DNA of 64,000 nucleotides from a bacterium (GCA_037131105.1 JBAXRQ010000001.1:130039-194038), one strand, 5' to 3'. Shown: positions 40,996 to 45,137, counted from the stretch's first letter. Numbers and translations are program-made. Notes: a model not told the origin generated them from the sequence alone.

Positions 40996-41778
40996 TTATT
41001 TTGTCGCTGTATCCAGAACTAAGCCCGGGCTGATTGCGACGTGGTTTGGCGCTGCATTTCCTTTAACCGGATACCATGCCTGATTTCCCTGCGAGTCGCG
41101 GGCAGTAATGAAATAATCCAAGGTGGTCACACCGTGCAGTCCGGTGCTAGGTATATTCGCCAGATAGGTATTGGGATGCTTGGAGTCCGTTCCGTCACTT
41201 AGCTCAGCTGCCTGCCACGCGCCTGTAGGAGTGGTGCGGTAGTAGAAAGAGAGGATGGGAAAGGTAGAAGTCGCCACGTTATCAGTAGCGGTGAAAGAAA
41301 GCTTTATGGGCTCCACGGTATAGGTGCTGCCAAATCCGACAGTGATGGTCGGCGGCGTTTTGTCGGCAAGCTCTGGGTCTGACACCACCTTGTCGCCCTT
41401 GATCCAGTCAGTCAGTAAAAGATTCTGACCGGCTTGGATAGTGTGATAGCGTAGCTCACCGTCCTCATAGTAAACGTAGCCGTCATTTCCGAGAAAGCCG
41501 AGCTGGGCCGAATAGGGCTGGCGTATGTCATGAATAGTGAAAAGTCCGGAACTATCCGTCAGATACTGCGAGGTTGACCCTGGGGCAATGACGGTAAGGG
41601 TGCCAGTAAGGGGGTTGCCCTTGGTGTCAGTCACTTGCCCCATCATCTTGGTAGGGGGCAGCGTAATGACATCTATCGCCCTAGACCTGTTGTGGAGGTA
41701 GACCCCGAGTCCTCCTAAAAGGATGCCGACCAGTGCAGCCCCGACGATAAGGTTTGATCGTTTGAAAAGTCTGCTCAT
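40996..41778 (-). CDS. Membrane-anchored surface protein with a CarboxypepD_reg/Cna-B-like beta-sandwich domain.
   Basis: N-terminal TM helix, then …GQVTDTKGNPLTGTLTVIAPGSTSQYLTDSSGLFTI…. It overlaps the upstream giant gene by 4 nt. Confidence 0.5.
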   Translation of the reverse strand: MSRLFKRSNLIVGAALVGILLGGLGVYLHNRSRAIDVITLPPTKMMGQVTDTKGNPLTGTLTVIAPGSTSQYLTDSSGLFTIHDIRQPYSAQLGFLGNDGYVYYEDGELRYHTIQAGQNLLLTDWIKGDKVVSDPELADKTPPTITVGFGSTYTVEPIKLSFTATDNVATSTFPILSFYYRTTPTGAWQAAELSDGTDSKHPNTYLANIPSTGLHGVTTLDYFITARDSQGNQAWYPVKGNAAPNHVAISPGLVLDTATK

Positions 41779-44700
41779 ATACAGGTGTTCGCGGGTAATC
41801 CGGCCAGGGTCAGGCGTCTGAATACCCGATCAGCTACTCCGCGCTTCTCCTCAAGAATAGCTTTCCCGTCTGCCTGGGAAGCGGGAAGCAGGTTCATCTT
41901 GGTAACGAAATCATGGCAGTAGCGGTCAGGGCGCTGGTTGTCGGCAAAGATGGTTGTGGCGAAGTCCTCTTCCTCGTTTTCCTCAGGGTGTCCGGCCCCA
42001 TTGTCATGCGAATAGGTAGAATCCATTTCTAGTGTGAAGATGTCGTTAGCATAGGAAAGAGCGCGGGTACGGCTATAGAGGCTTGGCCATGCGCTGACAT
42101 AGCTAGCAAGGTCGGGGCGCTCCCAGCCGCTTGAGACCAGGTATTCCAACTCGTGTCCTGACTCGTGGCGGACAGTGTTGCGGCCGGCAGATACTTCCTG
42201 GGTGACGCCCCCTTGCATTAGGGCGGCGTTCAGTAAGCCGCTCAGTATGGTTATCTCGTATGAATAATCTTGGCTGCCACCGGCTCTGTAGTAAGCATTG
42301 TTTACTATAGAAGACGAGATGAGTATCTTTTCAGTCAATTTCCTGTGACTTGGATTAGAGCTGCCGTCAACTCGGGTAGAGTCTCTTAAGAGGTCCATCT
42401 CATCTGCCATTCCCTGCCACACGGGGGTGTTGGCGGAATCGTCCGCCAGCGCGCCTGCAAGTGCTCCTTCAAAGCACAAGTCGACACTGCCTACGGCCTT
42501 TTCTCTCGTGCAGACCATGTCGATGCCGATACCCAAAAAGTAATAGTTGGTGCCGGGATTGATGACTGTCTTGGCGTGGCCGCTGCTAGTCCCAAAAATA
42601 TCGGTGATAGTAGTGGGCTGGAATTCACCGTGAAGAGGGGCCACAACTATGTCCCATACGGCGGCTGGGTCTAGCCAGAATTGTGCCGGAAAGGTGAACA
42701 TTGACGTGTTCTCTATCACGGTGTGAAAAGTTTGGGGAGACTGTCCGCCGGCTAGCCGCTTGATGGCGGTGACATCGGCAGGAATAAGGGGCAAGGCAAA
42801 GGCGGGACCGTCAACCACGATATGGGTCTGCTTCCCTTGCGGGACAACTATATGAAAGGGAGGGAAGACGTAGCTGGCAGTGGTAATGGCGTAGGTTCCA
42901 AAAGTAAATTCGCCAAAATCGGTTCTTACCGTGGCAGCGTAGCTGTCATTAAGTATGAGCCGGCTATCAAAGGTTCCATTGTAGGCGGTAGTGGTTATTT
43001 TCTCGCTCGTTCTTTGGTCGGTCAGGTCGACAGTAATGTATCCGAACTGGTTTTCTAGTAATATGTTTCCACTCATATCAGTAACTTTTCCGGTTGCCAG
43101 GGATCCTGGTATTACGGTGAAATTTTTGTTTATGAGGTTGGCATTGGAAACGGTGGCATCAATATTCCGGGGATTGTAATAGTTTGTGCTGGAAAAGAGC
43201 AGGGGCTCAACAACGTAGGCAGCGGGCGGTAAGCGGGGCGTAGTGTAGACCCCATTTGTATTCGTTTGAAAAAGGGAAGAGTTGTGTACGTATACAGACT
43301 CGTTCTGCGCAGCGATTCCAGCGGCAGAGGCAATACGTCCAGATATGGTGTATCCCTGGACAGTAAAGTTCTGGCCTCCCAAGTTGGCCCCGCTGAGGGT
43401 AATGGCTGCGCTTGCTGGTGAGACAGTAAGCTGTCCTACGTTGACTACGGTGACCGTGGTTACGGCTAGGGTATAACTACCATCCCTTACGTTTGGGATG
43501 GTGTAGTCTCCAGCTGCATTGGGATGTACCGAGGCGACCCCACCAGTGATGGTCACGGTGTCGGTGGGATCGCTGTTTGCTATGTGGCCGGAAATGGAGT
43601 GAACGGTGGAGGGGAGTGTGCCGGTAAAGTTAATGCCAGTCACATTGCGGGTTGTTACTAGTGTGATGGCGCTCGAGATCGGTGAGAAAGTAATTCCCGT
43701 TTTGGAGGGGGTCAGGACGTAGTTGTGGTTTGGGGTGAGCCCGATGGTCGTGTAGTTTCCTGCCGCATCCGTCGTGGCGGCTGGAGTGGGATTTTGGCTG
43801 ATATCCGAGATGTAAGTGAGGGTCACTCCGGCTACGGCGCTTCCGGTAGAGGTTTGAATATGCCCGGAAATCGTATAGGTCACCGGATTGGGAGTACAGG
43901 TGCCGTTGGCAAAGGTCTCAAGCGAGGATATCTGGTCGTTCATGTTCAGTCCGGTATCGAACTGGTCACTGGTTCCTGCGGTCGAGAGGTCCCAGTGGGT
44001 ACCTCCATTGCTCTGGCTGAGGCATTTCTTGCCTCTGGGCTGATTCAGATTTCGGTCAGCGTTTTCGTAGACCATGATCGATACTGCCGTAGTGCCAGGT
44101 ACGAATAGGGAGGAGGCGATGTCGTTGAAGCCTTGGTCGGGAAGGTAGCGGAGGTAGGTTCCCACCGGCACGCTGAGCTGGGTGCCTTGACAGTTCCGAT
44201 CAGAGAAAAGGATGAAAGCTCCTCCTGTCGCGCGGGAGCAGTCGGCTACCGGGGCTGGTACGGCCGGCAATGAGCCTAGGAAGTTCAGCCCGGTGACATT
44301 GGCGCCAATGACCGCGATATTGCTATAGCGCAAGGGGCCGAAGGTGTAGCCGACGGCCGACGGCGTGACAGTATAGGTGATGCCGTCCGGTAGGTCGGAA
44401 AAGGTGTAGACGCCTGACGCATTGGTGGTTACGGGACTGGTCACGGAGGAGGGCGCCCCACTCAGTACCACCGAGATTCCTGAAAGCGGCCCGGTTACGC
44501 TTCCTCCCGCCGTGTTTGAAATGGTGCCGGAAATGGTATGGGGGGAGTAGAGCTTAATGTTGACGTATTTGTCGCAGACCGAAGAGGCAGTGGCCGCTCC
44601 TCCGACGGGGACTATGCAGACCCAGACCTGGTACTCACCTGCGGCGAGGGCGCTGCCGTTTACTGAGGCGGTATTTAGGGAGCTGGTCAGGGTGGCGGCG

Positions 44701-45137
44701 GGGGTGTTAGCCGCAAGAACCTGGGTTATCCGGCTGGTAAGGATACCTGTTGTGTCTGCGGCCCCTGCCTTCTTATAATAAATGGCCAGGTCGTTCTTGG
44801 AGTAGCCGGCGCCATTCCCCTGGTTTCCCTGGCCGGTCAGACTGAGGGTTATCGTTGTCCCGAGTTTGTAGGAGACTGCAGGTGAATTCTGGACCTTTGC
44901 CGGTAGGTTGATATTAAGGAATGAGCCTTGTACGGATGACCCGGAGTCAGCCTTCGCGACCAACGGGGTGAGGGCGGCTGAGAGGCTGCTTTTCCAGATT
45001 GACCGTAGCTGGGTGGGAATGGGTGCGGCTACGCTGAAAACAGCTCCCACAAAAAATGCTGCGAGAATGCCGGCGGTAAAGGAGTGGCGTGGATGTCTGC
45101 TCATACCTCTAGTGTAGCACAGCGGCAGGGAAAACAT
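41775..45137 (-). CDS. Giant secreted protein: signal peptide, multiple Cna-B/CarboxypepD_reg-like beta-sandwich repeats, and a C-terminal HExxH zinc-metallopeptidase-like domain.
   Basis: N-terminal hydrophobic signal. Repeated blocks such as ISGTISNTAGGSVTG…GVYTFSDLPDGITYTVTPSAVGYTF. The C-terminal region carries VRHESGHELEY (HExxH). Confidence 0.6.
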   Translation of the reverse strand: MFSLPLCYTRGMSRHPRHSFTAGILAAFFVGAVFSVAAPIPTQLRSIWKSSLSAALTPLVAKADSGSSVQGSFLNINLPAKVQNSPAVSYKLGTTITLSLTGQGNQGNGAGYSKNDLAIYYKKAGAADTTGILTSRITQVLAANTPAATLTSSLNTASVNGSALAAGEYQVWVCIVPVGGAATASSVCDKYVNIKLYSPHTISGTISNTAGGSVTGPLSGISVVLSGAPSSVTSPVTTNASGVYTFSDLPDGITYTVTPSAVGYTFGPLRYSNIAVIGANVTGLNFLGSLPAVPAPVADCSRATGGAFILFSDRNCQGTQLSVPVGTYLRYLPDQGFNDIASSLFVPGTTAVSIMVYENADRNLNQPRGKKCLSQSNGGTHWDLSTAGTSDQFDTGLNMNDQISSLETFANGTCTPNPVTYTISGHIQTSTGSAVAGVTLTYISDISQNPTPAATTDAAGNYTTIGLTPNHNYVLTPSKTGITFSPISSAITLVTTRNVTGINFTGTLPSTVHSISGHIANSDPTDTVTITGGVASVHPNAAGDYTIPNVRDGSYTLAVTTVTVVNVGQLTVSPASAAITLSGANLGGQNFTVQGYTISGRIASAAGIAAQNESVYVHNSSLFQTNTNGVYTTPRLPPAAYVVEPLLFSSTNYYNPRNIDATVSNANLINKNFTVIPGSLATGKVTDMSGNILLENQFGYITVDLTDQRTSEKITTTAYNGTFDSRLILNDSYAATVRTDFGEFTFGTYAITTASYVFPPFHIVVPQGKQTHIVVDGPAFALPLIPADVTAIKRLAGGQSPQTFHTVIENTSMFTFPAQFWLDPAAVWDIVVAPLHGEFQPTTITDIFGTSSGHAKTVINPGTNYYFLGIGIDMVCTREKAVGSVDLCFEGALAGALADDSANTPVWQGMADEMDLLRDSTRVDGSSNPSHRKLTEKILISSSIVNNAYYRAGGSQDYSYEITILSGLLNAALMQGGVTQEVSAGRNTVRHESGHELEYLVSSGWERPDLASYVSAWPSLYSRTRALSYANDIFTLEMDSTYSHDNGAGHPEENEEEDFATTIFADNQRPDRYCHDFVTKMNLLPASQADGKAILEEKRGVADRVFRRLTLAGLPANTCI

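Follow-up and report, generated by a model that had tools for sequence, protein, structure and literature searches.

What would a bacterium with a ~0.95-Mb genome do with a stalked, 1120-aa exported protein ending in a HExxH domain, and with a second copy of the gene pair that encodes it? The question is raised by a 64,000-nt stretch of bacterial DNA (GCA_037131105.1 JBAXRQ010000001.1:130039-194038; hereafter the window, always at its full length), in which an open reading frame (ORF) on the minus strand at 41775..45137, the large gene, is followed by a smaller partner gene. Patescibacteria (the candidate phyla radiation, CPR) have very small genomes and presumably live at the expense of other cells, and few of their surface effectors are understood. 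The reading we favor, with a probability of roughly 0.6, is that the large gene encodes an exported stalked protein with an M48-like zincin head, coupled to a membrane-anchored partner, as a surface protein-cutting apparatus. Judged from its sequence, the large protein is probably a metallopeptidase of the cell surface and belongs to a new M48-like family of very few members. The features on which the argument draws are listed here, with residue numbers in brackets; P0001 is a paralog encoded in the same genome.

41775..45137, minus strand: large gene, predicted 1120-aa multi-domain secreted protein (NCBI start Met12, window 45104)
45012..45137, minus strand: basic N-terminal stretch and single hydrophobic segment (18-42), from a hydropathy scan
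44544..44957, minus strand: N-terminal domain (61-198) with two conserved Cys, from comparison with P0001 (37% identity)
44265..44543, minus strand: CarboxypepD_reg / prealbumin-like beta-sandwich repeat 1 (199-291), from Pfam
43890..44249, minus strand: betagamma-crystallin-like domain (297-416), from PDB profile matches and Ca-binding motifs
43611..43880, minus strand: beta-sandwich repeat 2 (420-509), E=2.3e-7
43359..43604, minus strand: beta-sandwich repeat 3 (512-593), E=1.4e-4
43104..43352, minus strand: beta-sandwich repeat 4 (596-678), E=3.3e-5
42843..43103, minus strand: degenerate fifth repeat (679-765), E=0.033, and from alignment
42522..42842, minus strand: pre-catalytic region (766-872), conserved with P0001
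41778..42521, minus strand: C-terminal M48-like zincin domain (873-1120) with an invariant Cys876/Cys888 pair, from alignment and profiles
42153..42167, minus strand: HESGH motif, His991, Glu992 and His995, two putative zinc ligands and a putative general base
41937..41993, minus strand: invariant GHPxE/DNxxED[FY]AxxxFxDN segment (1049-1067), with Glu1053, Glu1057 and His1050 as candidate third ligands
40996..41778, minus strand: partner gene, 260 aa, with a transmembrane (TM) anchor, a CarboxypepD_reg-like sandwich and a PPAD-type Ig-like domain

The case for a peptidase head rests on the C-terminal domain. The HExxH motif that the initial annotation had noticed in VRHESGHELEY is present as HESGH at residues 991-995, and it is kept in all four homologs. 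These four, P0001-P0004, are the true relatives of the domain found by an exhaustive phmmer search over 1.84 billion representative proteins (E=4e-63 to 2.5e-6). Although the homologs are only 28-51% identical, the five-sequence alignment holds 36 invariant columns, among them Cys876, Cys888, Arg990-His-Glu-x-Gly-His995, Glu1037, Asp1039, Gly1049-His-Pro1051 and the ED[FY]A…F.DN stretch (Glu1057-Asp-x-Ala, Phe1064 and Asp1066-Asn). A chance origin of the motif was rejected, since the composition of the large protein predicts 0.01 such motifs and the motif is invariant in the four homologs. No Pfam, NCBIfam or PHROGs model matches residues 759-1120. Other searches added little to the family: a word-indexed search with the C-terminal domain and with its alignment gave no match, the query protein itself not being returned either; the family alignment found nothing in the GTDB species genomes; the JGI metagenomes yielded a single match, a 1.5-kb contig identical to the window; and scans of viral contigs with the large protein and with the partner found nothing.

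Several comparisons point from this domain to the M48 peptidases. Against the PDB, the five-sequence profile gave one match at E<=10, the HtpX (M48) fragment 3cqb (E=0.013), which covers the NAF-type strand and the helix that carries HExxH. The family member that comes closest to the Pfam model Peptidase_M48 (PF01435) is P0002, with 17.9 bits for a cutoff of 20.3; the large protein itself does not match this model even at E<=10. An hhalign comparison of the family with an alignment of four E. coli K-12 M48 peptidases (HtpX, LoiP, YcaL and BepA; MtfA and SprT were also fetched) scored 40.5 over 186 columns (P=3.9e-5, probability 70%), whereas 200 column-shuffled family alignments scored 12.8±2.3 with a maximum of 26.1, so that 0/200 reached the observed value. 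In a control set of 48 E. coli ORFs (150 aa or longer, drawn from five regions), the four M48 peptidases took ranks 1-4/48 in the order HtpX, LoiP, YcaL and BepA, with SprT at rank 5 and MtfA at rank 7, over a background of 13.5±2.5. The initial annotation had named the lack of zincin-fold homology in this region as the result that would make the HExxH a chance occurrence; profile homology to zincins was found, in the HtpX match and in the hhalign score, which speaks against chance. The C-terminal domain thus appears to be a distant relative of M48-type zincins, with an HExxH that is functional in origin.

The likeness extends beyond the motif and has clear limits. With the M48 peptidases (HtpX, BepA, LoiP, YcaL, Ste24; PF01435) the domain shares an HExxH helix after an NA[FY]-like strand, a following acidic helix, as aligned by hhalign, and a His-Pro pair. 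In contrast to them, it stays below threshold in Pfam, has its His-Pro before the acidic helix and no Arg of the HPx4R type, is associated with neither TM helices nor a TPR domain, sits at the C-terminal end of a long exported repeat protein and is known from about five sequences. Three features define M48, namely HEXXH, a Glu on the following helix that binds zinc (E201 in BepA) and, further on, the HPx4R plug motif (PMC7950410). We checked the Glu of the ExxAD motif in BepA (E201) and HtpX (E222); hhalign pairs the M48 ExEAD helix with EN..ED[FY]A, where Glu1053 (E/D) and the invariant Glu1057 are close neighbors of the paired position. In the AlphaFold model of the domain, the order of secondary structure is a long helix, three strands, the HExxH helix and a later helix starting from ED[FY]A, which we take to be typical of the gluzincin fold, and HESGH lies inside the predicted helix 120-144 of the model.

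A number of points weigh against a zincin assignment and have to be set beside this similarity. The family counts only five or six known sequences, so that its conservation statistics are thin, and the C-terminal domain of the large protein passes no curated Pfam or NCBIfam model. The AlphaFold model of the catalytic domain has a pLDDT of 64, and Foldseek found no match for it in the PDB at E<0.1, with TM-scores of ~0.26; several gluzincins (M1, M4, HtpX) are among the weak matches. The HPx4R motif is absent as defined for M48, the invariant GHP (1049-1051) preceding the acidic helix with no Arg at +5. Finally, the hhalign register sets Asn1054, and not a Glu, opposite the zinc-binding Glu of M48, so that the third ligand could be Glu1053, Glu1057 or His1050. 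The initial proposal of a zinc metallopeptidase is therefore borne out as far as a specific profile similarity to M48 goes, but not by a curated model or a significant fold match. We also considered the MtfA and anthrax lethal factor (LF) zincins (M90/M34), in which HExxH is followed ~60 residues on by E-x-F-A (AECFAV in E. coli MtfA, its Glu presumably the zinc ligand), as E1057-D-F-A is here. An assignment to this type was rejected because the profile match is weak (P about 0.04, rank 7/48), below the M48 peptidases and SprT.

The rest of the large protein looks like an export signal followed by a stalk. As the initial annotation stated, its ORF is the longest in the window, and the NCBI gene call agrees with it from Met12 onward (1109 aa, MEI6477538.1, 'MAG: carboxypeptidase-like regulatory domain-containing protein [bacterium]', on a 949,156-bp contig); an identical protein is recorded from ENA sample ERZ27300165. 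The N-terminal signal that had been proposed is also recognizable, since a hydropathy scan places the sole hydrophobic segment of the 1120-aa protein at residues 18-42 and the homologs P0003 and P0133 start with classical signal peptides ending in ALA. This segment would be a Sec signal or an uncleaved signal-anchor, and export is further supported by the invariant Cys pairs. Sortase anchoring was rejected: the large protein has no LPXTG motif and no C-terminal hydrophobic segment (it ends in …LAGLPANTCI), and P0001 lacks LPxT as well. Behind the signal comes an N-terminal domain (61-198), which the initial annotation had not set apart; it is shared only with P0001 and matches neither PDB nor Pfam.

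The stalk proper is built from prealbumin-type beta-sandwiches. CarboxypepD_reg (PF13620) scores 80 bits in 4 stretches of the large protein, for a gathering threshold of 32.3 bits, and SdrD_B and SpaA, which are Cna-B-like and of prealbumin fold, also pass their Pfam thresholds. Tested one by one, the repeats at 199-291, 420-509, 512-593 and 596-678 are clear (E=2e-7 to 1e-4) and the fifth, at 679-765, is weak (E=0.033); the pre-catalytic region (766-872) has no family match, also when tested singly with CarboxypepD_reg. The 'at least five repeats' counted originally thus come down to four solid ones and a marginal fifth, and the 'long stalk' holds with these four to five repeats, but a domain of another type within it had gone unrecognized. 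Repeats 1 and 2 are separated by residues 297-416, which do not form a repeat but resemble a betagamma-crystallin. These residues contain two canonical Ca-binding motifs, NDIASS (338-343) and NDQISS (400-405), according to the definition N/D-N/D-x-x-S/T-S (PMC3551895), and FSDRNCQG, a partial [YF]xxxx[YF]xG Greek-key signature. When a profile of this region, made of two sequences (the large protein and P0001), was compared with the PDB, the top 10 matches were all microbial betagamma-crystallins, including clostrillin (E=0.0037) and spherulin 3a (E=0.013). The Pfam models Crystall_3, Inhibitor_I36 and Syncollin remain below threshold on these residues, and the AlphaFold model (pLDDT 48) is too poor to use, Foldseek being uninformative. 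The two Ca-binding motifs and the partial signature are shared with the microbial proteins (clostrillin, spherulin 3a, vibrillin), which differ in that here Cys316 replaces the second aromatic residue of the first signature and the second Greek key carries an insertion.

Tandem prealbumin-fold domains likewise serve as spacers in the Cna-B, SdrD-B and SpaA surface proteins of Gram-positive bacteria and in secreted enzymes with CarboxypepD_reg. Unlike those Gram-positive proteins, the large protein has neither LPXTG nor a C-terminal anchor, it has its enzyme head at the C-terminus, and it needs, or at any rate occurs together with, an anchored partner that is a separate protein. One could nevertheless propose that it is a non-catalytic adhesin or fibril, whose C-terminal domain is a binding module or a pseudo-peptidase of zincin descent. 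Adhesins typically have parts such as the Cna-B/prealbumin stalk and the betagamma-crystallin domain, no zincin match in the fold search was significant, and an Asn occupies the canonical position of the third ligand in the hhalign register. Yet the His, Glu and His in HExxH, the Arg before them and ~30 other positions, several of them acidic, stay invariant here at about 30% identity, whereas such residues tend to disappear from pseudo-enzymes once catalysis is lost. We therefore consider a purely adhesive role unlikely.

The favored reading gains its second component from the partner gene. The initial annotation had described a 4-nt overlap with a second anchored beta-sandwich protein, and both parts of this description agree with our analysis: the sequence reads ATGA at 41775-41778, where the stop of the large gene overlaps the beginning of the 260-aa partner gene, and the partner shows a TM segment at its N-terminal end as well as weak similarity to CarboxypepD_reg. 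Over the last ~80 aa, the partner family resembles the Ig-like domain of the Porphyromonas gingivalis peptidylarginine deiminase, PPAD (E=1.8e-8; PDB 4yt9, 5ak7); in PPAD this domain is part of the enzyme, whereas here it is on a separate membrane-anchored protein. Every family member has a homolog of the partner as its immediate neighbor (four loci; overlaps or gaps of 3-19 nt), which makes the pair a conserved two-gene module, a feature that the initial annotation had not seen. The partners outside the present locus are the following, with identities to the window partner.

L002 partner: 447 aa, 47% identity, overlaps P0001 by 10 nt
L003 partner: 522 aa, 33% identity, between HExxH proteins of 1163 and 1142 aa
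L004 partner: 251 aa, 27% identity, starts 3 nt after P0002

P0001 and its partner correspond to MEI6477918 and MEI6477917, on the same 949-kb contig as the large gene, so that the genome holds two copies of the module. In this second copy (L002, 8001-12235) the HExxH protein has 966/975 aa and a crystallin-like insert too, the 447-aa partner carries an extra IPT/TIG domain, and a sortase gene and a PEGA-domain gene are nearby. In L003 (478-8986), from another metagenome, two HExxH proteins flank a single 522-aa partner gene, and their stalks are unlike that of the window: CarboxypepD_reg hardly matches them, and the crystallin-like domain of the large protein finds no match in them. Across the family the stalks vary while the C-terminal domain stays conserved.

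This arrangement brings to mind a polymorphic-toxin-like system, in which the C-terminal metallopeptidase would attack competitor or host cells and the downstream gene would be the immunity protein. In its favor, a long exported repeat protein has the HExxH domain as its very last part, every locus keeps a small gene in translational coupling, and the module forms an accessory island that is duplicated in the genome and flanked by repeats. However, no member has a Pfam toxin-family match, the sole match being Peptidase_M48 in one member, and Pfam, we assume, includes the Tox-MPTase toxin models. The variability is reversed with respect to polymorphic toxins, since it is the C-terminal domain that is conserved and the N-terminal stalks that differ. 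Moreover, the partner is an anchored ectoprotein of 250-520 aa with multiple beta-sandwiches, the first of which resembles the stalk repeats, unlike typical small immunity proteins, and two HExxH proteins share one partner in L003. A toxin with its immunity protein is thus quite unlikely.

The genomic setting tells where such a module may belong. The best named relatives of RpoD are those of a 'Patescibacteria group bacterium' (90% identity) and of Berkelbacteria (67%), and a 691-aa tRNA ligase found only a 26% match in the GTDB genomes. The gene order DnaG-RpoD-RuvA…TrxB…YkuD is retained in three relatives (RpoD 84-89% identical), all of which lack the module between trxB and ykuD and have other small genes or nothing at its site. 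In the window, the segment that holds both genes is bracketed by two direct repeats:

45188..45287, minus strand: upstream copy of the ~100-nt direct repeat
40284..40384, minus strand: downstream copy of the ~100-nt direct repeat

The two copies are about 85% identical, have the same orientation and enclose 4.8 kb. Their core, GTACTCCTCCGGAG[TC]ACGTCTCAAGG, occurs in the 64-kb window only at 40322, 45225 and 45428, and neither the paralogous locus nor the loci of the relatives contain it. The repeats could mark the edge of a cassette or a site of recombination. The paralogous pair in the genome, the absence at this site in three relatives and the flanking direct repeats mark the module as accessory, in a gene set that probably faces the host or the environment. 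That the large protein is instead a housekeeping protease of the cell's own envelope proteins, like HtpX, BepA and LoiP, is very unlikely: its nearest recognizable relatives are envelope quality-control M48 peptidases, and YkuD, FemAB and a Mur ligase are encoded among the neighbors, but a module that is missing at the site in close relatives, duplicated and variable fits housekeeping poorly, ~850 aa of spacer domains would point the catalytic head away from the membrane, and synteny shows that the neighboring envelope genes are conserved independently of the module. Adhesin, toxin-immunity pair and housekeeping protease are all less well supported than a stalked surface peptidase with an anchored partner.

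How would such a surface peptidase work? The large protein would leave the patescibacterial cytoplasm by Sec export, and from its N-terminus it would consist of the signal or anchor, the N-domain, four to five prealbumin-type spacers interrupted by the betagamma-crystallin domain and the zincin domain of ~250 aa. There, zinc would be held by His991, His995 and an acidic residue of the GHP…E…ED[FY]A segment, and Glu992 would activate a water molecule for cleavage of the peptide bond. The large gene is translationally coupled to that of the anchored beta-sandwich/Ig-like partner. The likeliest arrangement is a surface apparatus of two subunits, in which the partner would serve as the membrane dock or as a co-factor and the large protein would form a catalytic head at a distance from the cell; it would cut extracellular proteins that could be host-surface or environmental substrates. 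Zinc binding, peptidase activity, docking on the partner, surface display and a role toward host or prey are all properties that we infer from sequence. It is tempting to speculate further, although we think it improbable in this complete form, that the module specifies a two-subunit surface organelle of an episymbiont, with an Ig-like dock, a Ca-stiffened stalk and a zincin tip of a new family that cuts surface proteins of the host bacterium during attachment or feeding, and that it spreads as a cassette bordered by the ~100-nt repeats.

Exported multi-domain metalloproteases are common, and what is new here is an M48-like family of about five sequences that has no curated model, its position at the tip of a stalk and its obligate partner. 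We are thus likely dealing with a cell-surface tool of modest novelty and not with a new principle. Still, the bacterium spends about 8 kb of its small genome on the two copies of the module. If the C-terminal domain is active, it would represent a new M48-like peptidase family with a soluble, exported head on a stalk, and a concrete candidate for the processing of extracellular proteins by such bacteria; the strictly conserved partner gene makes the two-subunit design testable. If it is inactive, the large protein would be just another surface protein with multiple domains.

Some further observations concern the surroundings of the module. Between the stop of trxB and the large gene lies a repeat-rich spacer of 367 nt (45138-45504, minus strand). 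It contains two 27-28-nt direct repeats in three copies each and a perfect inverted repeat of 27 nt (45402-45428 / 45482-45508), and it is very strongly structured, its predicted RNA fold reaching -147 kcal/mol (z=-7.15); Rfam found nothing over window positions 40000-46000. Inside the repeat-bracketed segment, a 141-aa ORF of no matching family (40477-40902, plus strand) converges on the partner gene and is followed by a strong hairpin resembling an intrinsic terminator, with a T7 tail (40941-40979, plus strand); the public gene call prefers an 88-aa minus-strand ORF at this site. Farther along the locus, a cluster of small pseudopilin-like genes (N_methyl), four to five in number, separates ruvA from trxB in relatives L011-L013; it is missing from the window (46458-47787), where a Maf gene lies between rpoD and ruvA instead. 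Lastly, a 310-aa ORF without a Pfam match (49159-50091, plus strand) combines an N-terminal hydrophobic segment and TPTPTP linkers with ~8 copies of a short C-x5-C unit, such as ITCSGKISCLT and ISCGPKVACIT.

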